A stretch of DNA of 43,666 nt from a virus (IMGVR_UViG_3300033485_000036:1-43666); one strand, 5' to 3'; shown: positions 12,507 to 28,900, counted from the stretch's first letter. Notes: generated by a model not told the origin, from the sequence alone. Numbers and translations: made by a program.

Positions 12507-12546
12507 TGGGTCGTCGATATTAACCCACCAACAATGAATGACCCAT
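12507..12546. repeat. 40-bp exact repeat containing the enhancer-like tandem site (copy 1; copy 2 at 28861-28900)
   Basis: TGGGTCGTCGATATTAACCCACCAACAATGAATGACCCAT; both copies lie in divergent intergenic regions. Confidence 0.9.
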
Positions 12547-12577
12547 GTGATTCTACCGTGTGTTGCGGTAGTGGGGG

Positions 12578-12594
12578 CTGGCACATGGGATGCA
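12578..12594 (+). promoter_or_regulatory. sigma54-type promoter
   Basis: CT-GG-CACATGGGAT-GC-A; ATG 12607 at 14 nt; hairpin CTACCG/CGGTAG upstream. Confidence 0.85.
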
Positions 12595-12606
12595 TGATGA
12601 TGCTGC

Positions 12607-12999
12607 ATGCAAAGACAAGAGTGGTTGGATTCGCTCAAGAGTGGTGATGAGGTCGCAATGAAGTCGCGGTATTTGCCGGGATTCGGCGGGGAGAGGGGCT
12701 GGCAGATCCGACTCATCTCCAAGATCTCGCCCGGACGAACAAAGTTCACACTGTCCGACAATGACCGCGTGAAACCCGAAATGCTCCACCAAGTCACCGA
12801 CGAGGTACGCGCAAGCATTGATTTTCACACTGCCGCAATCGCGCTGTGCCATGAAGCCAACGTGCTTCGGGATGAATTGACGACAATCGCAAACTACTCC
12901 AAGCTCCTTAGGACACAGGACGCGATCGACCTGAAGGCCGAGCTCGTTGGGGTTTTGAATCACATCAGGCTTGGCATACTGTCTGCAAAGTCATTCTGA
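12607..12999 (+). CDS. Hypothetical protein (SH3-like N-terminus)
   Basis: WLDSLKSGDEVA...; follows the promoter. Confidence 0.7.
   Translation: MQRQEWLDSLKSGDEVAMKSRYLPGFGGERGWQIRLISKISPGRTKFTLSDNDRVKPEMLHQVTDEVRASIDFHTAAIALCHEANVLRDELTTIANYSKLLRTQDAIDLKAELVGVLNHIRLGILSAKSF
12971..12987 (+). promoter_or_regulatory. sigma54-type promoter
   Basis: TT-GG-CATACTGTCT-GC-A; ATG 13001 at 15 nt. Confidence 0.75.
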
Positions 13000-13000
13000 C

Positions 13001-13216
13001 ATGAAGAGGATCGCACAGCAAGTAGATGTCGATGGAATCCGGAAGGCTGTTGAGGTAAGCGCCGGGGACTCCTCGCGAATCAGTGATGCCACGATTCGAG
13101 CCATCCATGCCGATGCGGCCCGATTCGCCGCAAGGGCTGGGTACTCGAGGGCCCTCTGTGTCGAGATTGCGAATGACGTGACAGTTCGCGACTTGACCAT
13201 TATCGTTGGGATGTGA
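13001..13216 (+). CDS. Hypothetical protein
   Basis: MKRIAQQVDV... Confidence 0.65.
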   Translation: MKRIAQQVDVDGIRKAVEVSAGDSSRISDATIRAIHADAARFAARAGYSRALCVEIANDVTVRDLTIIVGM

Positions 13217-13236
13217 CCGACCGGGTGGTTCCCCGG
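13217..13236 (+). repeat. Start-associated hairpin repeat, copy 3
   Basis: CCGACCGGGTGGTTCCCCGG (loop variant). Confidence 0.88.
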
Positions 13237-13251
13237 TGAAGGGAGAGATGT

Positions 13252-13326
13252 ATGTTTCCGTATGTGATCGTAATGATTCCGGTGTTCGCATCGTTCTTGT
13301 TTCAGGTGTGCTCGGAGGGTAAGTGA
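13252..13326 (+). CDS. Small hydrophobic peptide (24 aa)
   Basis: AAGGGAGAG SD; MFPYVIVMIPVFASFLFQVCSEGK; ends at the next start. Confidence 0.45.
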   Translation: MFPYVIVMIPVFASFLFQVCSEGK

Positions 13327-13737
13327 ATGGCTGATATCGGGAACCTAGTTGTGTCGAGGACGTTTGGTCTTAATGATTGGGTTGAAGAGTCACACGGGAG
13401 GGCGGCCGAAAAGGGTTGGTGGGACGATTGCGCATACCGTGGCGAGAATGATGACTTCGAAATCCTGAACGAATGCGTCTACGACAAGATCCCAGAGAAG
13501 CTGGCGCTCATCCACTCAGAGGTCAGTGAGGCCCTCGAGGATTTCCGCAACGGCACAATGGTGACTGACTACGAGGAGAACGGGAAGCCAGTTGGCTTCA
13601 ATACCGAGCTCGCCGACATCTTGATTCGCGTGTTCGACCTTGCAGGGGCGTTGGGTATCGACCTCGAGAAGGAAGTGCGCATCAAGTCGGACTTCAATGA
13701 GACCCGCCAGCGTCGCCACGGCGGGAAGCGCTGCTGA
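13327..13737 (+). CDS. MazG-like NTP pyrophosphohydrolase
   Basis: EKLALIHSEVSEALE...ELADILIRVFDL...K..FN..R...HGGK. Confidence 0.88.
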   Translation: MADIGNLVVSRTFGLNDWVEESHGRAAEKGWWDDCAYRGENDDFEILNECVYDKIPEKLALIHSEVSEALEDFRNGTMVTDYEENGKPVGFNTELADILIRVFDLAGALGIDLEKEVRIKSDFNETRQRRHGGKRC

Positions 13738-13812
13738 GTTGAACCGGGGGTCGCGTAGGCGCCGAGTGGGATTCGAGACCCACGCCACCATTGCCGCACA
13801 AGGGAGAAACAC

Positions 13813-14373
13813 ATGATCGAGAAGCAGCTTCGTAGGAGAGACGTGCTCACGAAGGATGACATGTATGAGCGTTGGCAAGCCATGGAGTTCGGAAACCGGC
13901 CGCGCTCATGGGAAAGCTTCGAAGAGTGGAATGCAGATTGGACCTACATGGGTCCGGTGGCCATTCGATACTGTGAGCCCGACAGCAAGCGCAAGGCCTA
14001 TGGTGTTCGTGTTGGCAAGGTCCTTGATACACTGCGTGAACTCGGTGGTGAAATCTCGAAGTACCGCTTCTCTGAGCAATCGAATCTCGATGATGTGGTG
14101 ATTCAAGGTGAGTTGACCGACATCTATGGCGGGGTGTTGTTGTCGTACACCCACGCCAATAAGCCGATGTCGAAGGTGCGGGACACACTCATCGACGTGC
14201 GAGGCTCGGCCGCGATGGCCACGCTCGACCGCTGGCTTGACCCGTGTGACGCGGAGGATCTTCGCTACCTGCTCGCCTCCTACCCGAGGCACGTCATCGA
14301 GTTCGGTTCCTACCGACGGCCGTTCGGGGTGTGTCATCGACGCATGTGTGTGTGGGAAGTGCGCAAGTACTGA
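13813..14373 (+). CDS. Uncharacterised protein, possibly ATP-grasp-like (paralogue of 25623-26204)
   Basis: GNR..W, VAIR, QGEL, SYPRHVIEF, VWEVRKY. Confidence 0.7.
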   Translation: MIEKQLRRRDVLTKDDMYERWQAMEFGNRPRSWESFEEWNADWTYMGPVAIRYCEPDSKRKAYGVRVGKVLDTLRELGGEISKYRFSEQSNLDDVVIQGELTDIYGGVLLSYTHANKPMSKVRDTLIDVRGSAAMATLDRWLDPCDAEDLRYLLASYPRHVIEFGSYRRPFGVCHRRMCVWEVRKY

Positions 14374-14389
14374 CGGAACGATGAGTGCA
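14373..14389 (+). promoter_or_regulatory. sigma54-type promoter
   Basis: AC-GG-AACGATGAGT-GC-A; ATG 14403 at 15 nt. Confidence 0.6.
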
Positions 14390-14402
14390 TGGAGCTGTGG
14401 CC

Positions 14403-14684
14403 ATGAGGAAGAAGAGCCGGAAGAGCAGTCACCACAGCAAGCGAGGCAGCTCGAAGGCCAGGGCAAGGCGTCGCTCATACCTACTACACGTCTACCAATC
14501 TGACGTCGGGGTTGGTACGTGTAGATGTTACAGGTGTGGCGCAGTGTTGACGGAAAACACAATTACAGTAGATCGAATACTCCCGGGATGTCTCGGTGGG
14601 TCCCATGTGCGCGCAAACATTCGCCCGGCGTGCGGTAGGTGTAACTCGGAAACGGGCGGAATGCTGTCAGGGAGAAACCGATGA
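14403..14684 (+). CDS. HNH endonuclease
   Basis: CYRCG...TVDRILPGCLGGS....NIRPACGRCNS. Confidence 0.85.
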   Translation: MRKKSRKSSHHSKRGSSKARARRRSYLLHVYQSDVGVGTCRCYRCGAVLTENTITVDRILPGCLGGSHVRANIRPACGRCNSETGGMLSGRNR

Positions 14685-14959
14685 TTGAAGTCCACGCGGA
14701 GACTCGAGTTGTCAAGTTCCCCACCCTCGCCCGAGCGATTCACTACCTCGAGGACGCAAAGCGCCAGGTACGCAAAGCAAATGACGTGCTCGGGAATGTA
14801 TATCTCGTCGACACGAAGGCCACGGAGTCGTACACCGCGAAGCACCCGAATCGCCTCAAGGGTCCGGTGTTCGTTCGCCGGCCAGGAACCTACGTGCCGA
14901 TGGGTTTCGAAAAGGCATGGGGAAATGTGGTCAGTGTTCTTGGCTTCATTGATGCATAG
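14681..14959 (+). CDS. Hypothetical protein
   Basis: AGGGAG SD; ATGA overlap. Confidence 0.7.
   Translation: MIEVHAETRVVKFPTLARAIHYLEDAKRQVRKANDVLGNVYLVDTKATESYTAKHPNRLKGPVFVRRPGTYVPMGFEKAWGNVVSVLGFIDA
14940..14956 (+). promoter_or_regulatory. sigma54-type promoter
   Basis: TT-GG-CTTCATTGAT-GC-A; ATG 14969 at 14 nt. Confidence 0.75.
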
Positions 14960-14968
14960 GCCCAAGCC

Positions 14969-15520
14969 ATGACCTGGAACATTCGACGCAGTGCGCTTCC
15001 GAACGACCGCAGATTCACGCTCCCCAGCACGATCCAAGCCGTGAAGAATCTCGTAAAAATCGAGGAGTTCAGTCTTGATGTCGCGGCTGAGCCACTCTCG
15101 CACCACGCGGAGAAGTGGATTGGTCCGCTCGGTGAGCCCGGGCAGGGAGGGTGCGTTGGACTCGATGGGATGGTGGCAGCGTGGAGCGGACACGTCTTCT
15201 GTAACCCGCCATGGAGCCAGAAGGATGAATGGGTGGCCAAGGCATGGAGTGAGTGGTCCTCAGGGCTCCCGAACACCATCACCATGCTGCTTCCGGCGAC
15301 GACAGATCAGGCGTGGTGGCATACGTTCGTTGAGCCGCATCGAATCAGCGGCGCCCTCGGTGTGCGGTTCATGGAGACACGCACCAAGTACGGCAAGCCC
15401 GAGGATCCGACCGGCAAGGATCAGGGGAGTCCGCAGTTTGGATCGGTTATCCTCCATTGGTCGTGCGTTACTCCGCGAGACGCTCATGCCGGATTGAGCA
15501 TGAACCATGCGGCCTGGTGA
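14969..15520 (+). CDS. Phage N6-adenine DNA methyltransferase (Dam/PF05869-like)
   Basis: FSLDVAA, DG...W.G.VFCNPPWS, MLLPATTDQAWW. Confidence 0.88.
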   Translation: MTWNIRRSALPNDRRFTLPSTIQAVKNLVKIEEFSLDVAAEPLSHHAEKWIGPLGEPGQGGCVGLDGMVAAWSGHVFCNPPWSQKDEWVAKAWSEWSSGLPNTITMLLPATTDQAWWHTFVEPHRISGALGVRFMETRTKYGKPEDPTGKDQGSPQFGSVILHWSCVTPRDAHAGLSMNHAAW

Positions 15521-15764
15521 CAGGGTCGTCCACACGACCGGAGAGTTCGGCATTGTCGTTGGCATCGGCCGCACCATCAACGGCTTCGCCGGACTCGTCA
15601 CGGTGGATTGGGAGCTCGGGGGAGAGGTGTGGGGGCGGTCGGATGCGCCGCAGTGGTCCCTGACGGTATGCCCACCCAAGGCCGAGATGGGTCGTCAATG
15701 CGCACCCGTCGACACCAAAAGACCCGTCGCAGCCAAACCGAAGCAGCTGGATATGTTCGGATGA
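15507..15764 (+). CDS. Small SH3-like protein with a C-terminal clamp-binding-like motif
   Basis: MRPGDRVVH..GEFGIVV; ends KQLDMFG. Confidence 0.6.
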   Translation: MRPGDRVVHTTGEFGIVVGIGRTINGFAGLVTVDWELGGEVWGRSDAPQWSLTVCPPKAEMGRQCAPVDTKRPVAAKPKQLDMFG

Positions 15765-15768
15765 GTCG

Positions 15769-15785
15769 GTGGATCGATTCCTGTA
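15769..15785 (+). promoter_or_regulatory. Variant sigma54-type promoter (-12 GT)
   Basis: GT-GG-ATCGATTCCT-GT-A; ATG 15798 at 14 nt; a TACAAT -10 is also present. Confidence 0.45.
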
Positions 15786-15797
15786 GTACAATCAGGC

Positions 15798-16034
15798 ATG
15801 AACACAAAACAACCAGTGCAAGATGTCAGGATTACGCACACGCTACACGACGGCGACAAGAGCCTCAGGGTGCGCATGTATGACGGGCGCATCCTGGATT
15901 CCGGGGGCTGCGAGATTGGCGCTTATGGCTTGACATGGTGGCACGGAGAGCCCATGCTCTCTGAGATTCGGTTGCACGACCGCCAATACACCAGCCCGCG
16001 GACCGTATGGGTGGAGTGTGTAGGGGCCGCATAG
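15798..16034 (+). CDS. Hypothetical protein
   Basis: ORF fills the gap between a promoter and the repeat. Confidence 0.65.
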   Translation: MNTKQPVQDVRITHTLHDGDKSLRVRMYDGRILDSGGCEIGAYGLTWWHGEPMLSEIRLHDRQYTSPRTVWVECVGAA

Positions 16035-16036
16035 TA

Positions 16037-16056
16037 CCGACCGGGCGGTTCCCCGG
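16037..16056 (+). repeat. Start-associated hairpin repeat, copy 4
   Basis: CCGACCGGGCGGTTCCCCGG-ATGCAGTGTAAGGGAGAG, nearly identical to copy 2 including its flank. Confidence 0.9.
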
Positions 16057-16077
16057 ATGCAGTGTAAGGGAGAGAAG

Positions 16078-16359
16078 ATGGAAAAAGGAAAAATCAGTCA
16101 CAGGCCACTGGAGATCGAGGGGGCACTCTATACCGAGATCACCAGGACGTACAAAAACTACACAATCCGACAGACGCTGGCGGAGGGAAACCCGCGCGAA
16201 CCATGGACGCTGACCAGTGCGCTCAGTGATGGCGAAAGCGTGTTGTTCGCCTACTCGGGCATGTACGAAACACAGGAGTCCGCCATTGACGTGGCTGATG
16301 AGCACCTGAAGCAGGCCAATCGAATCATCGTTGGGAACTTCTCAAAGAAGGGTGGGTGA
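16078..16359 (+). CDS. Hypothetical protein
   Basis: Strong SD; MEKGKISHRP... Confidence 0.7.
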   Translation: MEKGKISHRPLEIEGALYTEITRTYKNYTIRQTLAEGNPREPWTLTSALSDGESVLFAYSGMYETQESAIDVADEHLKQANRIIVGNFSKKGG

Positions 16360-16362
16360 TAC

Positions 16363-16656
16363 ATGGAACTCGACAAGGCGGAGCTCGAAGTACTGGTTGC
16401 GCGTGTGGCACAGGACGAAGTCTCGAAGGTGCTTGGTCGGATTGTGGCGGAGTTGACCGTCAATGCTGAGGCCATTTCCGAGATCGAGTATGCGCTTGAG
16501 GCCTTGGGTCTCGACCCGGACGAAGAGGACGATGGGGCCAAGGAGCCGGATTCCCTGGACGAGTTCATTGCCGGGCGTACAGCCTCCAACCCCGAGTTTA
16601 CCAAGATGGTGGCCATCGCAAGCGCAGCCCTGGCCGAGGAGGCGAAATGCAGTTGA
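16363..16656 (+). CDS. Acidic hypothetical protein
   Basis: D/E-rich, 97 aa. Confidence 0.7.
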   Translation: MELDKAELEVLVARVAQDEVSKVLGRIVAELTVNAEAISEIEYALEALGLDPDEEDDGAKEPDSLDEFIAGRTASNPEFTKMVAIASAALAEEAKCS

Positions 16657-16952
16657 CCGACGCAGTGAATGGGCTGTTCGAATGTCTCGGCGGTGTCCTC
16701 CTTTGGATGGGTGTCCGCCGGCTGTGGATCGACCGAGAAGTCAAGGGCGTCTACTGGCCCGCGACGATGTTTTTCGGTCTGTGGGGTTGGTGGAACCTGT
16801 TCTACTACCCCAACCTCGGGCAGTGGCTCTCGTTCCTTGGGGGACTCGTCGTTGTGTCGGCCAATACGACATGGGTGGTGCTGTTCTTGGTGTTCCGGGC
16901 GAAGAAGGCTGCACATGACCCACTTAAGGAATACATGAGTCAGGGCCGATGA
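16647..16952 (+). CDS. Three-TM membrane protein (PQ-loop/SemiSWEET-like)
   Basis: Three hydrophobic segments; RLWIDREVKGVYW; WNLFYY; ANTTWV. Confidence 0.65.
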   Translation: MQLTDAVNGLFECLGGVLLWMGVRRLWIDREVKGVYWPATMFFGLWGWWNLFYYPNLGQWLSFLGGLVVVSANTTWVVLFLVFRAKKAAHDPLKEYMSQGR

Positions 16953-17031
16953 CTCACCAACAATGAATGACTCACCTGGCCCTCGGTAACCACTCGGTTG
17001 CCGGGGGCTTCTTCTTGGCATGCCGCAAGCA
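16950..17031 (+). promoter_or_regulatory. Enhancer-like tandem site + terminator-like hairpin + sigma54 promoter cassette (copy A)
   Basis: TGACTCAC-N10-TGACTCAC; GCCCTCGGTAACC-ACTC-GGTTGCCGGGGGC-TT; TT-GG-CATGCCGCAA-GC-A; ATG 17044 at 14 nt. Confidence 0.85.
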
Positions 17032-17043
17032 ACACGTGGATGC

Positions 17044-17250
17044 ATGGAAACCAAATTCATCAACGGAGATGTTGTGATGGTGTCGAGGTTCGGTCAGTCC
17101 GTCAGTGGTGTCGTGACGGGGCGATTCGACTATCCGGTGACATCGGGGTACCCGGGCGGAACACGTGACTACAGCGTCGCGCTTGTCACGGGTGAGCTGG
17201 TGTGGGCACATGAGAGTCGCATCATGTTTGTAAGAAGTGCCTTTCTTTAG
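17044..17250 (+). CDS. Small SH3-like protein (paralogue of 17964-18158)
   Basis: F..GD.V.V.R.G.SV.G.VTG.FD.PVTSGY.GG. Confidence 0.75.
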   Translation: METKFINGDVVMVSRFGQSVSGVVTGRFDYPVTSGYPGGTRDYSVALVTGELVWAHESRIMFVRSAFL

Positions 17251-17332
17251 AGACCCACTGACGACGAATGACTCACTCGGCCCTCGGTAACCACTCTGTT
17301 CCAGGGGGCTTTAAGTTGGCAAGGGGGATGCA
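17251..17332 (+). promoter_or_regulatory. Same cassette (copy B)
   Basis: AGACCCAC-N10-TGACTCAC; hairpin; TT-GG-CAAGGGGGAT-GC-A; ATG 17345 at 14 nt. Confidence 0.85.
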
Positions 17333-17344
17333 GAACCAACGACC

Positions 17345-17608
17345 ATGATTACCACAAACCCGAAGCAAAATGCAGTGCGATATGCCACCTCGATGATGCT
17401 GAGCATTGAGGATGACGAGCAGACTGGTAGCGTGAGGCACACCGACAGCACCTTCGAGACTTGCCAGCGGTGCGGCGGCAGTGGCTGCAAGACGCACGAA
17501 GTCGCCCCATGGGTGCGCCCGGTGGCCAAGCTCGATGGAGGCTACGTCGAGGCTGAGGTGACCGTGACGTGCGACGCGTGCGGCGGGAGCGGGTTGGTGC
17601 GGTCGTGA
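17345..17608 (+). CDS. DnaJ-type zinc-finger protein
   Basis: CQRCGGSG and CDACGGSG. Confidence 0.75.
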   Translation: MITTNPKQNAVRYATSMMLSIEDDEQTGSVRHTDSTFETCQRCGGSGCKTHEVAPWVRPVAKLDGGYVEAEVTVTCDACGGSGLVRS

Positions 17609-17919
17609 CTCCGGAGCAGGTTGAAGTGTGCTGCGATGCCATGAGGGAATCCGGGGTGCCGGATGAGCTTGTATCGGAGATCGTCGAGGCACTGTGGCTA
17701 CAAGGTCGGCCAGTGAGACTCTGTGTGTCTAGGACGATTCCCAGGGAATTCGATGTATCGACGGTGGACTTGGTTGGGAGGCATATGTTTCGCGAACTGG
17801 CCAAGGGGATTCTCGATAGGGGCCTGGCCAAGCGGTCAGTCGTGGTGGTGAATGGAGATACAGTCCTTGGGCTTAGGATTGATGTGGTTCCACCTTGTCC
17901 ACGGTATCCGCACGGATAG
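17605..17919 (+). CDS. Hypothetical protein
   Basis: GTGA overlap start. Confidence 0.6.
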   Translation: MTPEQVEVCCDAMRESGVPDELVSEIVEALWLQGRPVRLCVSRTIPREFDVSTVDLVGRHMFRELAKGILDRGLAKRSVVVVNGDTVLGLRIDVVPPCPRYPHG

Positions 17920-17936
17920 TTGGCTCGCTTCATGCA
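17920..17936 (+). promoter_or_regulatory. sigma54-type promoter (leadered transcript)
   Basis: TT-GG-CTCGCTTCAT-GC-A after hairpin TATCCG/CGGATA; SD AAGGGAGA before ATG 17964. Confidence 0.7.
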
Positions 17937-17963
17937 TGACAGAAACACAGCAAGGGAGAAAAC

Positions 17964-18158
17964 ATGGATAAACGATTCAAGGTGGGTGATGCAGTTCGCG
18001 TTTGGCGACTCGGAGACTCGGTGGACGGGATCGTCACCGGTCACTTCGACTTCCCGGTGACGAGCGGTTATCTCGGCGGGAGAACCGAATACAGAGTCTC
18101 AACAAAGGAGTATGGGCTGGTGTGGGTTGTTGAAGGAAGAATCATGAGGGCAGAATGA
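17964..18158 (+). CDS. Small SH3-like protein (paralogue of 17044-17250)
   Basis: MDKRFKVGDAVRV...FDFPVTSGYLGG. Confidence 0.75.
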   Translation: MDKRFKVGDAVRVWRLGDSVDGIVTGHFDFPVTSGYLGGRTEYRVSTKEYGLVWVVEGRIMRAE

Positions 18159-18832
18159 AAACATACAACCCAAAGTCTGTTGAGGTGTGGTGTGGCGGAG
18201 TCCGAGTGGACGACAAGCAGTCCTTCGAATGGAAGGCCACAGAAGTGAAGTCCGATCCGTACATTCAGACGTACTCACACAAGAAGCTACACCTCTTCAA
18301 CCCCAAGCCCGAGGAGATTGAGCTCGAGGACATCCCCCATGCCCTGGGCCTCAAGACGCGCTACACCGGGCACTGCAAGTTTCACTACAGTGTCGCACAA
18401 CACTGTGTGCTTGGAGCCAACCTGCTCGAGGATTCGCACGGACCATGGTCGGCGCTCGCCTTCCTGCTACATGAGCTCGGGGAGGTGTACCTGCCGGACA
18501 TCGCCTCACCCCTCAAGCCCCACATCAAGATCGAGGTTGAACCCGGTGTGCTCATGGGGTGGAAGGAACTCGAGAGGCGGCACGAGGTCGCCATTCTCGA
18601 GGCTCTCGGATTGGACCTCTGGCTCGCACGTCTCCATCACCCCATCATTAAGGAAATGGACAACTCGATGCTGGCCGCCGAAGCCAACGCCATCATGTCC
18701 CCACTCATCCCGGGATGGGGGGGCGATGCGATGCGGAATCCCGCGAAGACCGCGATCGTGATGTGGGAGCCGGAGGCCGCCGCAGACGTGTGGCTCATTA
18801 CGTACAAGTACCTACGCAACATCATCGGCTAG
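18155..18832 (+). CDS. HD-superfamily phosphohydrolase (YfbR/5'-deoxynucleotidase-like)
   Basis: EDIPHAL, RYTGH, YSVAQH, LLHELGEVYLPDI.SPLK, D..ML..E. Confidence 0.85.
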   Translation: MKTYNPKSVEVWCGGVRVDDKQSFEWKATEVKSDPYIQTYSHKKLHLFNPKPEEIELEDIPHALGLKTRYTGHCKFHYSVAQHCVLGANLLEDSHGPWSALAFLLHELGEVYLPDIASPLKPHIKIEVEPGVLMGWKELERRHEVAILEALGLDLWLARLHHPIIKEMDNSMLAAEANAIMSPLIPGWGGDAMRNPAKTAIVMWEPEAAADVWLITYKYLRNIIG

Positions 18833-18854
18833 CCGAAGTGCGCGAGCGATCTGC

Positions 18855-18883
18855 TTGACGGGAATAAATCACCACGTTACACA
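18855..18883 (+). promoter_or_regulatory. sigma70-type promoter
   Basis: TTGACG-N17-TACACA; shares CGTTACAC-N3-AAATCA with the 20343 promoter. Confidence 0.6.
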
Positions 18884-18905
18884 TTAAATCAGAAAGGAAG
18901 CAAAA

Positions 18906-19473: not shown

Positions 19474-19485
19474 GAACCAGCCACC

Positions 19486-19563: not shown

Positions 19564-19575
19564 CGAAAGGTAATC

Positions 19576-21189: not shown

Positions 21190-21190
21190 A

Positions 21191-22606
21191 TCACATCAAC
21201 CCAGCAAGTAGCGTGTCGACCGACGATTGCTGAACTTCGCCAGTGGCCGGTGCTTCCGAGAGAAGGCGGGAGCACGCGAGCGACAGCGTGTCCACGCACT
21301 CGTCGTGTAGGGCCCTGGGGAAGGAGATGACTTCCTTCCGGAAGGCCTCGCACCACGTACCACCCTCAGGAAACAACACGGCTCCAGACTCGAGGTACGG
21401 CGTGATGGCGCGCAGCCTCGTCTCCTTCGGGCCGTGCGGCGGAACACCCACAATGTACGGAATGCGCAGTCGAAGCGTCTGGACGATAGAGCGGCCGCTC
21501 GCCGCTGCCTCGACGTAGATGCTGGTCGGATTGTACAGCCTTATTGCAGCCTCGACGTGCTCAATTTGCTTCGGAAAATCCCACACGCCAGTCTGGTAGT
21601 TAAGCAGGCGTAGCGTGGCGCCCTTCTTCGATACGACGAGGAGTCCGCTCGGGTCGTTGTCGGAGTTCTCGCCGTGCGAGCTGTCGACAATGACGAACGT
21701 CTGACTGCCCGCGGGGAGCTCGCCAGTCCACGTGTGCGCCAACCACTCAGGTTTCACGATGCCACCTGATTGTGGGATGGGGTCCTGCATGTACTGGGCG
21801 GAGAATCCAGCGCTGCCGAGGGTCGCCTTCTTCTGAGCCAGGGTGCGCTTGGAGAGGCGCTTGGGCGCGAGGAGCTCGTCCCCCTTGCGCGGATCCGTCC
21901 ACACGGGCGTCGACGTTCCTGGGCCAACGGCGGGCATCACCAGGGCGGTTGCGCCTCTGGCCATGAGGATGGCGGGGAGGTCGGCCTCGTGCAGGCGCTG
22001 GGCGATGCAGACTTCGAGCTTGTGGTTCTCGTTCTTCCAGCGCGACATCAGCACTTCTTCGTGCCACTCGTTGCGCGCAAGGATTGCAGGCGTGTTGTTC
22101 GAGTCCTTCGCATCCACGAGGTCATCAACGATGATGACGTCTGCGTGCGATCCGGTGATGCTACCGCCGGCGGAGACGCCGATTCGTTCCCCCAGGGCCG
22201 TCGTGCGCATCGACAGCTTGGAGGCAGTATCCTTGGACAGCTGCACGTACGGCCAGCGAAGGCGGAACCAGTCGCTCTTGATGAGGAGGCGGAACTTGGC
22301 GCTGAAGCGGTTGACTAGTGCGGCAGTGTGCGACACCGCGATGATGGTGGCCGACGGATCGCGCGCCCACAGCCAGGCAGGCCAGATGACGTTCGAGAGG
22401 AGCGACTTCGAGGAGCCCGGCGGGACGTTGATGACGAGTGTGTCGATGGGCAGCGAGCCGTCTGTCACTGCTTGAAGGTGAGTGGTGATGGCTGCCTGTG
22501 GCAACTCGTACACCATGGGCTGCGGACACACAACCGGCCACGCCGCACACGCGAAGCGGTCGAAGTCCTCGAGGAACTCAGTTGCCTCTGTGGCCAGGAT
22601 GCTCAC
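21191..22606 (-). CDS. terL: Terminase large subunit
   Basis: INVPPGSSKS (Walker A), IIVDD (Walker B), FSAQYMQDP, YVEAAASG, FP..LHDECVD; GTG start after GAAGGGGAG. Confidence 0.92.
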   Translation of the reverse strand: MSILATEATEFLEDFDRFACAAWPVVCPQPMVYELPQAAITTHLQAVTDGSLPIDTLVINVPPGSSKSLLSNVIWPAWLWARDPSATIIAVSHTAALVNRFSAKFRLLIKSDWFRLRWPYVQLSKDTASKLSMRTTALGERIGVSAGGSITGSHADVIIVDDLVDAKDSNNTPAILARNEWHEEVLMSRWKNENHKLEVCIAQRLHEADLPAILMARGATALVMPAVGPGTSTPVWTDPRKGDELLAPKRLSKRTLAQKKATLGSAGFSAQYMQDPIPQSGGIVKPEWLAHTWTGELPAGSQTFVIVDSSHGENSDNDPSGLLVVSKKGATLRLLNYQTGVWDFPKQIEHVEAAIRLYNPTSIYVEAAASGRSIVQTLRLRIPYIVGVPPHGPKETRLRAITPYLESGAVLFPEGGTWCEAFRKEVISFPRALHDECVDTLSLACSRLLSEAPATGEVQQSSVDTLLAGLM

Positions 22607-22941
22607 AACTCCCCTTCGAGGTACGCCAAGATGACGTCTCCATGGCAGGGCCCGGGGTGACAGAAGCAGCCCAGCCGCTTGCCTCGCAGGGACTCCAGCT
22701 TGGCCTCGAACTCCTCGTCCGTCATTGCGCGATACTTCAAGTACATCGAGTAGCACGGCAGCGTAGCTCCGGCCGACATGTGTGTCTCACCACACACTGG
22801 ACACACCTCGCCGATCACCACGGGGTTGCCGAAGTAGCCGGTGTAGCCCTTACCCTTGCGCCCAATGTAGACGTCGAAGGGCTCGAACTTGAGGTTGACG
22901 ACGGAAGTCACAGGGAGAGCTCGGCCAGCCTTAGCTGACAT
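22603..22941 (-). CDS. DUF4326-domain protein
   Basis: FDVYIGR...FGNP...LRGKRLGCFCHPGPCHGDVI; start uncertain (22941 or 22911). Confidence 0.8.
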   Translation of the reverse strand: MSAKAGRALPVTSVVNLKFEPFDVYIGRKGKGYTGYFGNPVVIGEVCPVCGETHMSAGATLPCYSMYLKYRAMTDEEFEAKLESLRGKRLGCFCHPGPCHGDVILAYLEGEL

Positions 22942-23062
22942 GGAGGATGTGCAACTACCGGGTGCGTACCAGCATACAGTCGCGCATCCCTGTCTACAGG
23001 CCAACAGTCGACGCCCGGGAGACCCGAGTAGCATCCGTCTGCCTGAACGTAAAGGGCCGCAA

Positions 23063-23425
23063 TCATTTCTGCAATTTCTCGGGAATCGAGGTGGTGTCGG
23101 CCGACGCGTTCTCGCGGTAGCGCGACATGAGGGCCAGCTTGGGCGACGGCGCAGACGGGATGTCGAAGACCTCGTCCTCCTTCGTCCCCTCGGGTGCTGG
23201 CAGCTTGATGAGCGTGTCCAAAATGACCTTCAACAGTGCGACCTGTCGGCCGAACGTCTGCTGAGTCGTGCCGTCGGCCGTGTCAGTGCGCGCAGCCGCG
23301 ATGCACTGCGACATCAACGCAGGTCCGTCACGGCGAGCGATGGTGATGAAGGGATGTAGCGCCTCGTACGCCCCCATCACCCTGTTGGCGTGCCGTTTAA
23401 TCGTGGTGTCAGTCGCAACGCTCAT
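23063..23425 (-). CDS. Putative terminase small subunit
   Basis: Position upstream of terL; 120 aa, helical; no diagnostic motif. Confidence 0.45.
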   Translation of the reverse strand: MSVATDTTIKRHANRVMGAYEALHPFITIARRDGPALMSQCIAAARTDTADGTTQQTFGRQVALLKVILDTLIKLPAPEGTKEDEVFDIPSAPSPKLALMSRYRENASADTTSIPEKLQK

Positions 23426-23564
23426 GACCGATGCGAGTCATAGACCGCTAGAAATGTAACGCAAAAACCTACGATCGATTGTTCCGATATTCACCCAGTA
23501 TCAACCACACGATCGTTAGCGCCATGCACAGCCACACCCATTCTGGAGTAGTCACGATGTCTCC

Positions 23565-23759
23565 CTATAGTGGGTCCTTCGACATGAAGCCATTGAGGTA
23601 GGCCTCTGCTTCACACTCCGACATGCCGAAGACGAGAAACTTCAGCACAAGATCGACCACATCCTTCCTGAGTTTGCGTCTGGAGACCTCAGCCCGGTCG
23701 GCAACTCCGAGGTCGTACATGTACTCAATTCCCTCACGAACATCCGCCTTGTCACACAT
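23565..23759 (-). CDS. Hypothetical protein
   Basis: Coupled to the upstream gene. Confidence 0.55.
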   Translation of the reverse strand: MCDKADVREGIEYMYDLGVADRAEVSRRKLRKDVVDLVLKFLVFGMSECEAEAYLNGFMSKDPL

Positions 23760-24036
23760 CGGTGATCCCCATGTCCGAGAACCATGTCTCGGGTTTTCTG
23801 TCGTTCGCTGCCGCGATCATAAGGATCGCATCCATCTGACTTCTGGTCACATTCAGGTCGAGTGTGGGCTCTGGCTCAGCCTTCCAGTAGTGGACCCAGC
23901 CGGATGAATATGGCTTCGGCTCGCCAGCATTGGCGGCAGCCCATGTGTGGTCGTATGCTTCACACGAAACCAACTCCCCATTCCTCTTGACCCAACCGGT
24001 GAACTCGATAAGGTTTACGTCCGTTGTCTTGGGCAT
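23752..24036 (-). CDS. Hypothetical protein (leaderless candidate)
   Basis: MPKTTDVNLIEFTGWV... Confidence 0.65.
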   Translation of the reverse strand: MPKTTDVNLIEFTGWVKRNGELVSCEAYDHTWAAANAGEPKPYSSGWVHYWKAEPEPTLDLNVTRSQMDAILMIAAANDRKPETWFSDMGITDV

Positions 24037-24048
24037 GCCGATACACAA

Positions 24049-24131
24049 TGCAATCCGCACTCCAACTACAAACCCCCGACAACCTTGATGGTCATCGGGG
24101 GATTCCTGGGTCATTCTTTGACGGTGGGTGC
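24049..24131 (-). promoter_or_regulatory. Enhancer-like site + hairpin + sigma54 promoter on the minus strand
   Basis: GCACCCAC-N10-TGACCCAG; hairpin CCCCCGA/TCGGGGG; TT-GG-AGTGCGGATT-GC-A; ATG 24036 at 14 nt. Confidence 0.85.
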
Positions 24132-24139
24132 CGAATGCG

Positions 24140-24673
24140 CTACGTCTTGAAGGCCTTAAGCTTCTTGGCCGCGCGCTGACGCCATCTCCACGCTGTCATT
24201 CGCGACACGCCGTAGTACCCGGCAATCTCAGTGTCGGTCCTCGAATCAGACCACATCTCCACCAGATCTGGTGGGAATTCCCACAGTCGATCCGAAGCCC
24301 CAATTGCGTCGTGAGTAGGCTGTGTGGTGGATACCGACCCAACATCCTCAGGATTCCATTGTTTCTGATGAAGTCCGAGGTCGGCCGGGTCCCACATCTG
24401 TTCGACGTGCACAAGCTCGACCGCCGACTTCGTGGCGATGATCTTGCCACGGGATGCGAGAGCCCGCCGCACCGACAGGATGGCTGCCGAGCACGCAAGT
24501 GGCCAGTCCTTGCCCTTCCGAATGTACTCAAGGTAGGTGAGCGCCACGAGCTGGAGCTCATCGTCCGAGAGAACCCCGGGGAACTGCGCCATTGCTGAGC
24601 GCTGACAGAGGTCGATTCCGACTTCATCCGGGATCGGCTTCGAAGTGTCGAGGTCGTATGTTTGCTGTCTCAT
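24140..24673 (-). CDS. Sigma-region-4-like HTH transcription factor (candidate late regulator)
   Basis: C-terminal TDTEIAGYYGVSRMTAWRWRQRAAKKLK. Confidence 0.65.
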   Translation of the reverse strand: MRQQTYDLDTSKPIPDEVGIDLCQRSAMAQFPGVLSDDELQLVALTYLEYIRKGKDWPLACSAAILSVRRALASRGKIIATKSAVELVHVEQMWDPADLGLHQKQWNPEDVGSVSTTQPTHDAIGASDRLWEFPPDLVEMWSDSRTDTEIAGYYGVSRMTAWRWRQRAAKKLKAFKT

Positions 24674-25623
24674 GGTGTTACCCACACAGGCGCAGAGAGG
24701 GAGAGACCGTGCTTCGGGTGGATGACGAAGAAGGCCTGGCGCGGAGGCTCGGGCGAAGCAGCCAGGAACTCGGCGAACGTCGAGTAGCCAATCAGGGACC
24801 CATTGACGATGAAGTCGCCTCCATTGATGAGGGTGTGGAAGTGGGCGAGCAACGTCAGGTCGGCCTTGATGGCCTTGTCCCAACCCATGATCTTCTTTCG
24901 GACTGGGATTGTGACACCACCCACACCGCCCTGGTACCCGATCTCGTACCCATGACACAGTCTCATGGTGAAATCGCCAATCCGGCGATAGGTTCGAGCC
25001 CCCGCCGCTGGCGTAAGGTCGACCCTGGGGTTTCCAGCGAATTTGGCCACGAGCCCGCGATACACGATGGTTTCGAGGGAGGTCCCGACTGGACGACAGC
25101 GCATCTTGTCTGTCAACCTGCCGTGGTTTCCACACACCAGGTCCCCGACGATCTTGAACTTGGAGTTCCGCAGCCAGTAGTTGATGCCGCTGGCCAGCAA
25201 ATCACCAACGAAAATCGCCGCTTCGACCGGGGTCATCGAATTATTCTCAACGAGGTCGTCATGGATCCACCCACTGATGAGGTCGCCAAGGACCGCCCAG
25301 TAGAGCACGTCGATCTTCGAGTCTCGCGCCGCGCCCTTGGCCAGGGAGAGGGAGTTGACAAAGAAGGCCTCCATGCGCTGTTGCGCGACCATTGGGTTGA
25401 AGGCATTGAGCCCGTTCACGTGCTCGGGTTTCACTACCTCATCGACGTGCAGGTCGCTGGTGATGACGCACGCAACGGCCGAATTACGCACTCCCTTGGG
25501 GGCCCGAATACTGTGGATCCTGGGCGCGCGAACCGCATTGATGGCGTCGACCTCTCGCGACAGGCGGGAATGCTCGCGCTTCAAATACCGGATCTCGGCT
25601 GGAGTCATTTTCTGTGTTGTCAT
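24670..25623 (-). CDS. Calcineurin-like metallophosphoesterase
   Basis: SDLH, LGD, GNHG, HG, HFH, VNGS motifs. Confidence 0.88.
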   Translation of the reverse strand: MTTQKMTPAEIRYLKREHSRLSREVDAINAVRAPRIHSIRAPKGVRNSAVACVITSDLHVDEVVKPEHVNGLNAFNPMVAQQRMEAFFVNSLSLAKGAARDSKIDVLYWAVLGDLISGWIHDDLVENNSMTPVEAAIFVGDLLASGINYWLRNSKFKIVGDLVCGNHGRLTDKMRCRPVGTSLETIVYRGLVAKFAGNPRVDLTPAAGARTYRRIGDFTMRLCHGYEIGYQGGVGGVTIPVRKKIMGWDKAIKADLTLLAHFHTLINGGDFIVNGSLIGYSTFAEFLAASPEPPRQAFFVIHPKHGLSLSAPVWVTP

Positions 25624-26204
25624 TAGTAGTTTCTCACTTCCCAGATTACGACATTTCGGTTAGGTGTGTTACCAAGGCAGCGCGTGTAGACAGCGAGTTC
25701 GATGACGTGTCCCGGGTACGACTCGAACAGGCACTCAATCTCATCGAACGAGCCCTGAGTGCAGATGGAGCGAATATACTCCTTAACTCCGACACCGACG
25801 GCATGGCGGCCGTGCCGAGACAGTGCGGCGCGCATGGGTTCCTTGCTGAATGAGTGGTAGAAGTACCACCCACCAACACCTTCAACCAACTCCCCCTGGA
25901 CGATGAGCTTGCACGGCGAGTTTGGGTCATACTGCTCTGGTGTGCCCTCACACACGATCTGTTCCTCAAGTGAAATACCAGAGGACCTCAACACATCAAC
26001 AATGTCCCAAGGGTCGACAGGCATCTTGAAGTCACCACCGGGAACAAGACTCCGAATGCCGACAAACGGCAAGCAATTGATGTAATCCCAGGTACGGAAA
26101 TCAGATGACAAGTACTCATCTCCAGTCCACGCCCCCATTCGGTTTCCGAGTTGACCCGACAGCCATAGATCGTAGAACTGCCTCTTTGTGTTTATTTGCA
26201 TCAT
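25623..26204 (-). CDS. Uncharacterised protein, possibly ATP-grasp-like (paralogue of 13813-14373)
   Basis: GNR..W, VGIR, QGEL, SYPGHVIEL, IWEVRNY. Confidence 0.7.
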   Translation of the reverse strand: MMQINTKRQFYDLWLSGQLGNRMGAWTGDEYLSSDFRTWDYINCLPFVGIRSLVPGGDFKMPVDPWDIVDVLRSSGISLEEQIVCEGTPEQYDPNSPCKLIVQGELVEGVGGWYFYHSFSKEPMRAALSRHGRHAVGVGVKEYIRSICTQGSFDEIECLFESYPGHVIELAVYTRCLGNTPNRNVVIWEVRNY

Positions 26205-26210
26205 CTCTCC

Positions 26211-27359
26211 CTACTTCTTGATGTGCTCTTCATACTCCGTTGTGAACTTCTCTCCTACCGCGCCAGCCTTCTCGAGTGCCTCCAATACACCGCGAACCTT
26301 CGCTGCCTTCTTGCCCTTCTCGAACCCAGAAACCTCAACCCCGCGCTCGATACCTGCCTTTGATGTCTTCTTAGCGACCGCGGCGATCGCGCCCTCCGCC
26401 CCAAGCAACTCAACAAGCACGGGCCATGCAACATCTGCGTCGTACGTCTTTTGAGTCCCAACCACCGGGCCCCACACCCTGCCCCCACCAACGTCGATTG
26501 GGTACTGAGCGGCATAGGCCATGAGGGCACGCCCAACATCATTTACGGCCGTCTTTGCCGCCTGGTAGCGGACAAGCGCCTGAGTCGCCATCTCTGGAGT
26601 CAGCATCGACTTGATGGTCTTCGCCAACCCGGGATCCGCCAGCGCCTGGATCTGCGCAGTGTACGCCGGACAAGCCCAGCGCCCCTTGCAGCGGCCGCAG
26701 TGGCGCCCGGGGAGTGGGTTGAGCTTCCCCATCTCCCCGTATTCCTTTGATGCCTCGATGACGCGGTCGCACACCAGCGACAGCTCACCCTGAATCAGAG
26801 ATAGGTCGAAGCTGTCTAGCTCCCCACGGTCCCACCATGTTGCCGAACCGGTTGCATGCAGGATGCCCACCACGGCGGAGGAGCATCCGTGGGTGCGACA
26901 CACCATGAGAGCCAATGTCCGAAGCTGCCTTAGGTCGACGGCCTTTCCGGTGTCGGAATGACCAGTCTTCAGGTCGTCGATATGGGCGACATCGCCGTCG
27001 ATGCGCACATAGTCTGCGGTTCCGTACACCAGCATTCCGGTGCGCGGGTAGTTGCGATCTAGATGGTGCCCAACCCGAGCCGCAACCTGTGCGTATGGAT
27101 CCCAGGAATACGTGACCTCGGACTCGGAATACACAAGGGGCTCAAGGTGCTCGTCATCGATCGAGTCGAGCCAGGCCTTTGTTTCGGGGTCCGTCGGGGG
27201 GCCACCGAATCCAGTGACACGATTGTCGAGCGCCGCATGACGAAGAGTTCCCGCCTCCATCGCATCTGATGTCTCTAGCGCCGCCGGAATCACTTGAGAT
27301 GACGGACACCTTTCGGCGATGTCGACGGCACTTGCCGTCGGAAGAGTCGGTAGAGTCAC
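26211..27359 (-). CDS. PD-(D/E)XK Cas4-like exonuclease (DUF2800-like)
   Basis: RCP, GTLRH, GTAD...DDLKTG, QL..L, PG.HCGRCK..WACP. Confidence 0.85.
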   Translation of the reverse strand: MTLPTLPTASAVDIAERCPSSQVIPAALETSDAMEAGTLRHAALDNRVTGFGGPPTDPETKAWLDSIDDEHLEPLVYSESEVTYSWDPYAQVAARVGHHLDRNYPRTGMLVYGTADYVRIDGDVAHIDDLKTGHSDTGKAVDLRQLRTLALMVCRTHGCSSAVVGILHATGSATWWDRGELDSFDLSLIQGELSLVCDRVIEASKEYGEMGKLNPLPGRHCGRCKGRWACPAYTAQIQALADPGLAKTIKSMLTPEMATQALVRYQAAKTAVNDVGRALMAYAAQYPIDVGGGRVWGPVVGTQKTYDADVAWPVLVELLGAEGAIAAVAKKTSKAGIERGVEVSGFEKGKKAAKVRGVLEALEKAGAVGEKFTTEYEEHIKK

Positions 27360-28117
27360 GACTTGACCTCGAGCGCGCGGAGCTCGGTCTCGCGGGCCTT
27401 GAACGCCGCTCGCAACGAATCGAGCATGGGCTTGGTGGTCGCCGGGTCGGCGTGCCCAGCGAATGATGGACCGATCTGGAGCCCGAGCTGCTGAAGGGCC
27501 CTGATGTCGGTCGCGGCCTTGATTTTCTCTGCGTGTTCGGCGCACTTATCGGCCAGGGTGGGCCCGGCGGCCGGCGGAGGAGGTGGGGGACCATCATCCA
27601 CAGCAGCCTTCGCCTGTGCCTGTGGGGCCGGCGACTGGTTCGGCTTCGAGTACTGCGTGACCTGGGCCCTAGGGGTGGGAGAGGGCTGGCGACGCTCGAC
27701 CGTGTTGGTGCTGGCGGCCGCCGCAAGCCCGTCATCGTCGTCATCATCAGAGACGACGCCAAGCATCGCAGATAGGGCGTACCGACGGGCATAGGACAGG
27801 GCCGACCCGATGCCCTGTGGAGTCTGCTGGGCCACGGGCATCTCGATGAGGCTAGACACCCAACCGCCAGACGCGTGTTGTAGGCGAGTCTCCACAAACA
27901 CTTTGCGCTCCCCGATGCTCGGCAGCTGAATGACCGAGAGGCCATTCTCCGCCAGCGGCTTGCGCACGACATCCCAGATCGCAGACAGCGTGGCGTATTT
28001 GAATGAGTAGGTCCCTTTGACCTCGCGGTCCTTTCCGACACTACTGAGTGCGCCCTGACATTTCGCCAATGCCGCAGCAAGCTCGGGCGTGAAATTCGAC
28101 TGGATCTCTTCGGCCAT
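27356..28117 (-). CDS. erf: ERF-family single-strand annealing protein
   Basis: KYATL, LAENGL, HASG, QGIGSALSYARRYALSAMLG, DDDG. Confidence 0.92.
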   Translation of the reverse strand: MAEEIQSNFTPELAAALAKCQGALSSVGKDREVKGTYSFKYATLSAIWDVVRKPLAENGLSVIQLPSIGERKVFVETRLQHASGGWVSSLIEMPVAQQTPQGIGSALSYARRYALSAMLGVVSDDDDDDGLAAAASTNTVERRQPSPTPRAQVTQYSKPNQSPAPQAQAKAAVDDGPPPPPPAAGPTLADKCAEHAEKIKAATDIRALQQLGLQIGPSFAGHADPATTKPMLDSLRAAFKARETELRALEVKS

Positions 28118-28145
28118 GTGTTTTTCTCCCTACGTTGTACTACAT

Positions 28146-28469
28146 TTAAAATGGAAGCTCTTCGTACGCCAGTGACTCAAACGGCACCACCCCGCTCGGA
28201 AGCAGGTCTGATTCGACGAACGGCCGATCTCCGCGACACGTGAGTGTCTTGGTGACATCGAGACCTTCACCACTAAGCTCGAGATACCATCGACACCCAC
28301 ACTCGCCCTCAACCATCACAGATAGAATCGGGTCAACATGGACACCAAAGTCATCCTCAAGGAAGCGCTGATCCTTTGAGAACCTGACTGACGCCGCCGG
28401 TCCGAACTGCTCATCAATCACTCGGAGTGCCACATTTAGCCCCTCGAGTGCTTCCGCAAGATCACTCAT
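28146..28469 (-). CDS. Hypothetical protein (acidic, ends EELPF)
   Basis: ORF; coupled to its neighbours. Confidence 0.65.
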   Translation of the reverse strand: MSDLAEALEGLNVALRVIDEQFGPAASVRFSKDQRFLEDDFGVHVDPILSVMVEGECGCRWYLELSGEGLDVTKTLTCRGDRPFVESDLLPSGVVPFESLAYEELPF

Positions 28470-28743
28470 GACCGTTACCTTTCGTGTTTTGCGATTTCAG
28501 CTGCACGAATGGTGCCACTGTTCGCCCAAGGCAATCCACAACCCTCAATCCATCCTCGGATCTATGGAACCCGTGAATACCCTTGACCGACATCATACCA
28601 CCACACACGCCACACTCGACGTACGTGCGCATAGCGATGAACACCTCGTCCCAACACCCGTCGGGCGGAGGGATCGGCTCCTTCGGTTTGTATCCGGGTG
28701 GATATGGTGCTCCAGTGATGATTGGTTTCGACTTCTTGGCCAT
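28462..28743 (-). CDS. Zn-ribbon hypothetical protein (leaderless candidate)
   Basis: MAKKSKP...CGVCG. Confidence 0.65.
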   Translation of the reverse strand: MAKKSKPIITGAPYPPGYKPKEPIPPPDGCWDEVFIAMRTYVECGVCGGMMSVKGIHGFHRSEDGLRVVDCLGRTVAPFVQLKSQNTKGNGHE

Positions 28744-28755
28744 GGCAGAGCGTGT

Positions 28756-28772
28756 TGCAGGTTTCGTGCCCA
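28756..28772 (-). promoter_or_regulatory. sigma54-type promoter of the recombination operon
   Basis: TG-GG-CACGAAACCT-GC-A; ATG 28743 at 14 nt. Confidence 0.85.
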
Positions 28773-28785
28773 AAAAACGACCTCA

Positions 28786-28869
28786 GCATTTGCCCTAGGA
28801 GCGACGATCTCCACTAGCCCGGTACCTCGGCATGGGGGAGAACGAATTCAGGACACGTCATGGGTCGTC
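28786..28869 (-). repeat. Block-conserved upstream element, copy 2
   Basis: GACGACCCA-N22-CCCCCATGCC-N18-AGATCGTCGCTCCTAGGGCAAATGC. Confidence 0.8.
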
Positions 28870-28900
28870 GATATTAACCCACCAACAATGAATGACCCAT
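28861..28900. repeat. 40-bp exact repeat, copy 2
   Basis: Identical to 12507-12546. Confidence 0.9.

Follow-up and report, generated by a model that had tools for sequence, protein, structure and literature searches.

Promoters recognised by sigma-54 share the consensus TGGCAC-N5-TTGCA (TTGCW in its extended form), and transcription starts about 12 nt after the GC doublet. [quoted passage not shown] Few phages are known to use sigma-54. Passages of a review state that sigma-54 requires an AAA+ bEBP bound at an upstream site, that this holds for all known sigma-54 promoters and that such sites lie about 100-150 bp upstream (PMC7057263); elsewhere the AAA+ bEBP requirement is worded, in the abstract of PMC4641369, as being "without exception". 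The part of a report that deals with the Pseudomonas phage YuA describes its use of the host sigma-54 (PMC10914365). Here we analyse the IMG/VR virus record IMGVR_UViG_3300033485_000036, a complete genome of 43,666 bp (the window, taken at its whole length). Six times, the window carries a cassette in which a predicted binding site is followed by a hairpin, a sigma-54-type promoter and a start codon at a nearly fixed distance.

The window was scanned with the pattern ACYCAC-N10-TGACYCA, allowing one mismatch at most. Seven matches were found, as compared to 0.27 expected, and none of 100 shuffles reached seven. Six of the matches belong to cassettes, at 12523 (+), 16952 (+), 17253 (+), 19394 (+, one mismatch), 24129 (-) and 28877 (+). 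An earlier note on this DNA had claimed six tandem sites; all were recovered, at coordinates 2 nt higher than it gave. The seventh match (7058-7080, minus strand, one mismatch) has no promoter match nearby among those listed and was taken as a chance occurrence.

The predicted site is built from a pair of direct TGACYCA-like half-sites with a period of 18 bp. Often, an inverted half-site lies another 16 bp upstream of these, which gives the tripartite consensus TGRGTC-N10-ACCCA-N11-TGACYCA. Site 1 (12507-12545, +) is tripartite, with the inverted TGGGTC at 12507-12512, ACCCAC at 12523-12528 and TGACCCA at 12539-12545, and lies where the portal gene and the operon starting at 12607 diverge. Site 6 (28861-28899, +) is identical to site 1 and occupies the region from which the recombination and DnaB operons diverge. 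Indeed, the exact 40-nt repeat that had been pointed out previously is present, positions 12507-12546 being the same as 28861-28900, with both copies in divergent intergenic regions and both starting with TGGGTC. Site 2 (16936-16974, +) is again tripartite (TGAGTCA, ACTCAC, TGACTCA) and overlaps the 3' end of the open reading frame (ORF) 16647-16952. Site 3 (17253-17275, +) consists of the two direct half-sites only, as does site 5 (24107-24129, -), which is found just downstream of a sigma-like gene. In site 4 (19394-19416, +), which overlaps the end of ORF 19166-19402, the first half-site reads ACCCCC, with one mismatch. Over 95 nt, the 19394 cassette shares 94% identity with the one at 17253.

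Relatives of the phage were found through portal-based searches. They comprise a 36-kb contig, G001, with a portal 75% identical to that of the window, three short contigs, L014-L016 (portal 68-71% identical), and L007, with a portal 57% identical and a different layout. Fourteen sites were aligned, six from the window, five from G001 and three from L014-L016. The half-sites are unchanged across the copies while the spacers and the hairpin sequences vary. The inverted half-site, GRGTC, stands at a fixed offset in 8 of the 14 sites; its presence at the 12507 and 28861 copies had been recognised before, but it is not limited to those two. That one half-site copy is inverted suggests a site read as double-stranded DNA rather than as an RNA signal. 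Finally, the GACYCA hexamer occurs about 1.8-fold over mononucleotide shuffles in the window and in G001, and is not over-represented in the more distant genome G003 described below.

Downstream of the site, a GG-N10-GC arrangement is found after every cassette site of the window (6/6), in line with the six sigma-54 promoters that had been proposed. The doublets are also exactly 10 nt apart in all five cassettes of G001, in both of those of G003, in the single one of the fragment G004 and in L014-L016. Good matches to the consensus are seen in TGGCACATGGGATGCA (12579-12594, +; TGGCAC..ATGCA) and in the two copies of TGGCAAGGGGGATGCA (17317-17347 and 19458-19488, both +). The other three are TGGCATGCCGCAAGCA (17016-17046, +), TGGAGTGCGGATTGCA (24034-24064, -) and GGGCATGGGACATGCA (28934-28966, +). 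Across five orthologous promoter pairs of the window and G001, GG and GC are kept and the spacers differ.

Between the end of the site and the T that precedes GG lie 33, 41, 41, 41, 42 and 34 nt in the window, which agrees with the spacing of 34-43 to the -24 GG reported earlier. The corresponding values are 42, 40, 40, 31 and 43 nt in G001, with 34 nt at a degenerate sixth site, 40 nt in L014, 41 and 31 nt in G003 and 44 nt in G004. Over 15 sites, some of which are duplicates or orthologues and hence not all independent, the gaps cluster at 31-34 and 40-44 nt and never fall at 35-39 nt. The two classes are about one helical turn apart, as expected if the site has to lie on one particular face of the helix.

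The start codon is placed just as regularly. An ATG begins 15 nt after the G of GC in five of the six window cassettes, at 12607, 17044, 17345, 19486 and 24036, and 17 nt after it in the sixth, at 28964. In G001, the offset is +15 in four of five cassettes and +16 in the fifth; the cassette of G004, with its ATG at +24, is the exception. The sequence was also scanned with a simple matrix built on the consensus, with GG and GC obligatory. An ATG at +14 to +18 follows 15 of the 66 matches in the window as compared to a mean of 4.8 of 76.8 in shuffles; in G001, it follows 18 of 67. In the window cassettes, the promoter takes up the space where a Shine-Dalgarno sequence would be. The fixed ATG is consistent with transcription starting about 12 nt after GC, in which case the mRNA leaders would be 0-2 nt long. 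Judged from these positions, the cassette mRNAs would therefore be leaderless or nearly so. As for the genes concerned, TGGCACATGGGATGCA heads an operon with a MazG-like pyrophosphatase, HNH and Dam genes, the copy of TGGCAAGGGGGATGCA at 17317 precedes a gene for an 87-amino-acid Cys-rich protein, TGGAGTGCGGATTGCA heads the operon that ends with the large terminase, and the ATG of GGGCATGGGACATGCA is the start of the DnaB-like helicase gene.

Between site and promoter, each cassette contains a hairpin. Those at co-directional junctions are strong or moderate in the window: at 16978-17009 (+), 14 pairs with a T-rich tail, -27.2 kcal/mol as sense RNA versus -17.5 as antisense; at 17279-17310 (+), -14.8 versus -10.4; at 19420-19451 (+), -27.3 versus -17.5; and at 24073-24101 (-), with the tail TTTGTAGTT, -22.7 versus -18.9. 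Three in G001 reach -15.0 to -22.9 kcal/mol. In the divergent regions, the hairpin is weak, with a 7-bp stem of -10.0 kcal/mol at 12553-12571 (+) and an imperfect structure of -6.5 kcal/mol at 28908-28927 (+); a third divergent region gives -3.5 kcal/mol, and the G001 junction at 21091 is also weak (-9.4 kcal/mol). Thus, the description of each site as followed by a GC-rich hairpin holds for four cassettes (-14.8 to -27.3 kcal/mol) but poorly for the two divergent ones. All seven strong hairpins of the window and G001 are more stable as sense than as antisense RNA because of G-U pairs. Four of the six window hairpins have T-rich tails, and the two best terminator-like matches within 12000-31500 in a consensus terminator scan are cassette hairpins. 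Since the strong forms occur only at co-directional junctions and the sense strand is favoured, the hairpin is most likely, on sequence grounds, the intrinsic terminator with which the upstream operon ends, and it would in addition shield the promoter. The idea that it forms part of the enhancer therefore gives way to that of a terminator.

The window contains at least six further sigma-54-type promoters. One, GGGCACGAAACCTGCA (28741-28771, -; ATG 28743, +15), points leftward and heads the Erf and exonuclease operon; its orthologue in G001 is at 8062 (+). Because it starts only 90 nt from site 6, site 6 would serve both directions. The five others have no site within 160 nt, and their ATGs coincide with plausible gene starts. 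They are TGGCACACTTCCAGCA (6380-6410, +; ATG 6408, +15), which heads the small-gene region 6408-9409 and has a G001 orthologue at 27770 (-), and the candidates CGGCACGCGTCGTGCA (8366-8396, +; ATG 8394, +15), TGGCATACTGTCTGCA (12972-13003, +; ATG 13001, +16), CGGAACGATGAGTGCA (14374-14405, +; ATG 14403, +16, an HNH gene) and TGGCTTCATTGATGCA (14941-14971, +; ATG 14969, +15, a Dam-like methylase gene). The earlier note had taken the products of the early region to be sigma70-driven. As the small-gene region 6408-9409 is itself headed by the sigma-54-type promoter at 6380, such a drive is not shown.

A promoter of another kind adjoins site 1. The portal operon is preceded by a sigma-70-like promoter, GTGACC-N18-TATCGT (12472-12506, -), with 4 nt and then the ATG at 12472, and its -35 element adjoins the inverted half-site. 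This promoter is kept in G001 and in L014-L016. From its position, the portal-operon mRNA would be leaderless too. A similar GTGACA-N17-TATCGT is found at 13178-13206 (+). The pattern GTGACY-N15-GTCTA matches the portal promoter only, and no promoter class emerged from a looser form of it.

We then considered how far the cassette extends among phages. The earlier note had made its reading depend on conservation upstream of homologous promoters, and the motif is indeed kept there: G001 has the full cassette at five places and the degenerate sixth at the DnaB region, and L014-L016 keep it in the portal divergent region. A scan of IMG/VR with the tripartite pattern gave 21 stretches. Twelve lie in one unrelated conserved coding sequence, four are promoterless singletons and one is G001; the remaining four are new cassettes, in L019 (G004) and in L023, L025 and L035 (G003 lineage). 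A second pattern, the site plus TGGCA-N7-TGCA, gave seven stretches, six of them in contigs already found. The seventh, in the 143-kb viral contig L156, lies inside an apparent coding sequence and was taken as chance. Overall, the cassette architecture recurs in three related lineages and in two distant or unrelated phages.

G003 is a complete genome of 47.9 kb, matched by 19 window ORFs, several of which are in overlapping frames. The shared proteins are 24-42% identical to those of the window, except for one membrane protein at 58%. Its two cassettes, at 17922 (-) and 31202 (+), head the replication and the structural operon, respectively. G004, a fragment of 7.6 kb, has no protein match to the window. 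Hidden Markov models (HMMs) were built for 49 orthologue pairs of the window and G001. Fourteen of them match G003: 12 structural or packaging proteins, an endolysin and an HD phosphatase, the last structural match, at 30232-30711 (E 0.0015), being likely spurious. No regulator common to the window, G001 and G003 was found among these 49 pairs. Two side observations concern these genomes. The membrane protein at 58% identity is a Trp-rich protein of 101 amino acids, encoded at 16647-16949 (+) in the window and at 20837-21085 (-) in G003 and absent from G001; it may reflect recent exchange of a host-interaction or exclusion gene. In L042 (G004), the region 2200-2480, just upstream of the G004 site, contains many tandem 9-nt units (HRV repeats in frame).

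Which protein might bind the site was addressed by searching for activators. As the earlier note had said, the phage encodes no bEBP: neither the 94 ORFs nor a six-frame HMM search of the whole record gave a Sigma54_activat match. The six-frame search, performed on the window and G001, detected no Sigma54_activat (PF00158) and no Sigma54_DBD (PF04552). The bEBP search of G003 gave only a Walker-A match of 11.9 bits, below the cut-off, inside an 823-amino-acid open frame that by its coordinates is a primase/helicase-like gene. When 28 small proteins were scanned against Pfam (E up to 1), a single helix-turn-helix was detected, at 24143-24700 (-). The protein of 177 amino acids encoded there (24143-24676, -) matches HTH_23 (2.2e-5) and Sigma70_r4 (0.024) and has only four close relatives in a set of 5.8 billion proteins. 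Its AlphaFold model (mean predicted local distance difference test score 63) consists of an N-domain of three helices and a C-domain of four, joined by a disordered linker. In Foldseek, all 50 matches listed are sigma-70-family factors, though weak ones (E >=0.024; template modelling (TM) score 0.2-0.28). As only sigma-70-family factors are listed, this protein, as modelled, is more likely a small phage sigma-70-family factor than an enhancer binder. The 101-amino-acid protein at 16647-16949 was ruled out as the site binder, being a Trp-rich membrane protein that is absent from G001.

Taking these results together, our leading interpretation is that the cassettes are close-range enhancers for a host sigma-54 activator, a bEBP; we would put it at about evenly balanced between right and wrong. 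A host bEBP is favoured because known sigma-54 promoters all need one and because no shared regulator was detected among the site-bearing phages. If the binder were phage-encoded and read the identical site, a recognisable protein would be expected, and none is seen. We infer that the site-bearing phages share a host group. As the phage has no activator gene of its own, its replication and packaging genes likely depend on a host activator for their switch-on. In the mechanism that we propose, host RNA polymerase with sigma-54 would sit on each promoter as a silent closed complex. The host bEBP, bound on the half-sites on a fixed face of the helix, would open all cassette promoters together, and these would drive the terminase operon as well as genes for replication, recombination and nucleotide metabolism. 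At the hairpin, transcription of the upstream operon would end, and the promoter would be shielded from read-through. Transcription would begin at or within about 2 nt of the AUG, yielding leaderless mRNAs. In the divergent regions, the inverted half-site could let one bound complex face both directions; at 12.5 kb, it would abut the -35 element of the sigma-70-like portal promoter.

Several observations weigh against a host bEBP at these sites. The half-sites are direct repeats 18 bp apart, and the predicted sites span roughly -58 to -113 relative to the start, closer than the range of about 100-150 bp given in the review. The -24 elements are poor at 24064 (TGGAGT) and 28934 (GGGCAT), and matrix matches in the window, 66 versus a mean of 76.8 in 30 shuffles, are not enriched overall. 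The promoter-like sites at 6380, 8366, 12972, 14374 and 14941 do without a predicted site. The 7885-8385 protein (166 amino acids) gives winged-helix leads, all below threshold (atlas score 0.84, TM 0.39-0.51). A search of sequencing runs listed no RNA run that contains the sequence. The host side is also silent. In 185,579 species genomes, 94 stretches match the tripartite pattern, as compared to about 70 estimated by chance, and none is followed by a convincing promoter. The site plus TGGCA-N7-TGCA gave 12 stretches in bacterial genomes versus 17 expected, with no clustering by taxon except for three Maribacter matches that resemble a conserved gene. With TGGCA-N8-GC, the site was found in 1 of 251 Myxococcota, 0 of 301 Desulfobacterota and 0 of 301 Burkholderiales genomes. 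The scan of bacterial genomes for the motif at RpoN promoters, which the earlier note had proposed, thus stayed at chance level, although the collection may miss the host or the arrangement there may differ. When prophage relatives were sought in bacterial genomes, a single match of 28% (in a Megasphaera metagenome-assembled genome) came from the portal profile and none from the capsid and DnaB profiles, so that no host could be inferred from the prophage-relative and phage-protein searches. A link to Myxococcus through the G004 terminase (a 330-bp, 66% DNA match to phage Mx8) was dropped because Mx8 has no copy of the site and the protein's best matches are Vibrio, Cronobacter and Burkholderia phages.

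The same observations give some room to a phage DNA-binding protein, either the 166-amino-acid product of 7885-8385 or an unrecognised small protein, that would read the half-sites and recruit a site-less host bEBP ATPase, or activate without AAA+. We regard this as unlikely, if worth keeping in mind. It would account for host sites not being found above chance in the bacterial genome scans, for a geometry odd for a bEBP, with direct repeats 18 bp apart near the promoter, and for the inverted half-site at the portal -35, a position typical of sigma-70 activators or repressors. Of the two kinds of binder, 7885-8385 has the winged-helix leads just mentioned. The earlier assignment of this gene to the winged helix-turn-helix class stands to that extent, but the protein has no Pfam match at E up to 1 and no relative besides itself in a homologue search. 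Moreover, the window and G001 have no non-structural protein in common with G003 despite the same site, and G004 lacks any protein match to the window. Natural sigma-54 activation without an AAA+ bEBP is not known, in agreement with the abstract of PMC4641369. That a phage protein turns on the sigma-54 polymerase without an AAA+ bEBP of the known type, or redirects a host ATPase to phage DNA, appears distinctly improbable to us; it would be the first natural exception to the need for a DNA-bound bEBP.

A bound protein could also do something other than activate. The half-sites would then be an operator or insulator, the protein blocking read-through, aiding termination at the hairpin or repressing the promoters, with activation coming from elsewhere or from a bEBP in solution. 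The site always lies directly upstream of the terminator-like hairpin, one half-site adjoins the portal -35, and the five promoters lacking a site within 160 nt indicate that it is not needed at every such promoter. However, the divergent regions also retain the site, with only a weak hairpin and no co-directional operon in front of it. Phasing of the gap by one helical turn also suggests that the bound protein touches the promoter complex. We consider this reading improbable.

It is very improbable that GG-N10-GC is read by a phage factor instead of sigma-54, for example the sigma-70-family-like 177-amino-acid protein of 24143-24676, even with a sigma-like gene in the phage, a host that may lack rpoN and leaderless design common in clades without sigma-54. 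Indeed, the elements fit TGGCAC-N5-TTGCA, as in TGGCACATGGGATGCA, with four exact TGGCAC in G001, G003 has cassettes and no match to the HMM of the sigma-like protein, and sigma-70-family elements, as given in a passage of PMC7057263, are about 17 bp apart (-35/-10) rather than 10 bp (-24/-12).

The remainder of the genome can be described briefly. Pfam and PHROG scans of the 94 ORFs indicate a small contractile-tailed phage, and the record has a 127-bp terminal repeat. The minus strand encodes the sheath (5-1318), capsid (3132-4163), portal (11138-12472), large terminase (21194-22756) and tube (43091-43513), as well as Erf and exonucleases (24.7-28.1 kb); nucleotide-metabolism genes (12.6-20 kb) and the DnaB-like helicase (from 28964) are on the plus strand. 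By conservation, the small-gene region 6408-9409 is all on the plus strand. When the large terminase, sheath and portal served as protein queries, the best identities were at most 34%, to phages of many hosts, and a megablast of 12000-30000 against 50,697 isolate phage records gave no match, hence no close relative there. Rfam and tRNA scans of the window had no matches. An ORF of 104 amino acids at 18906-19217 (+) matches the ribosomal protein L7/L12 C-terminal domain (PF00542, 1.4e-8).

Two further sequence features were recorded. A second conserved intergenic element, ACCGACCGGGCGGTTCCCCGGAT, occurs at 8600, 8888, 13216, 16036 and 30250 (+) in the window and at 25267, 19708 and 6579 (-) in G001. 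It has a 5-bp stem, CCGGG/CCCGG, and always stands directly before the Shine-Dalgarno sequence AAGGGAGAG and a start codon; it may be an RNA element of the 5' untranslated region or another class of promoter. The stretch 5640-6400 is rich in repeats and has no conserved ORF. It contains a GGTC tandem near 5796-5820, GAAC repeats and a 29-nt repeat present three times (5939, 5997, 6085), and a 63-nt repeat at 6289 reappears at 7817. Possible roles for this stretch are those of origin, packaging site or control region.

The cassette bears on how phages may use sigma-54. Uncultivated phages from wetland and soil, a whole group of them, appear to drive most of their non-structural operons, and in one relative the structural operon too, from sigma-54 promoters linked to one conserved site. 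If a host activator reads the site, a single signalling protein of the host would gate the middle gene expression of the phage, a simple means of sensing the state of the host. If a phage protein reads it, the long-held sigma-54 rule would be challenged. In about 100 bp, the cassette would in addition provide a compact natural part made of a binding site, a terminator, a promoter silent until activated and a leaderless start. Among the papers listed in our literature searches, none reports an upstream activator site at phage sigma-54 promoters, none pairs TGACCCA or TGACTCA with sigma-54, and none was seen to describe the features given below as new relative to phage YuA.

Comparison with known systems helps to place these features. 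As with NtrC at glnAp2/glnAp1, where an upstream activator opens the sigma-54 promoter and the same sites overlap a sigma-70 promoter, a sigma-70-like promoter lies next to the phage site. In the window, however, that promoter is divergent, and the half-sites are direct, 18 bp apart and end 31-44 nt before the -24 element. PspF at pspA is a bEBP that lacks a sensory domain and is kept inactive only by PspA; it exemplifies a class of host activator that a phage could use after envelope disturbance (PMC7057263). The hairpins resemble intrinsic terminators: they stand where an operon ends, a T-rich tail follows the GC-rich stem, and G-U pairs stabilize the sense RNA. They differ in their short, interrupted tails (CTTCTTCTT, CTTTAAGTT, TTTGTAGTT), which extend into the -24 element. 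The closest precedent is the use of sigma-54 by phage YuA, which has no RNA polymerase of its own and relies on host sigma-54 for part of its programme; the part of the report concerned describes no upstream activator site (PMC10914365). The window phage, in contrast, carries 12 or more candidate promoters. Seven of these, including the one that would share site 6, have a conserved upstream site; the position of the start codon is fixed, and a probable terminator lies between site and promoter. What is new as compared to YuA is therefore the number of promoters, the shared close-range tripartite site and the nested terminator, together with the fixed, probably leaderless start and the recurrence of the arrangement across distant or unrelated phage lineages.

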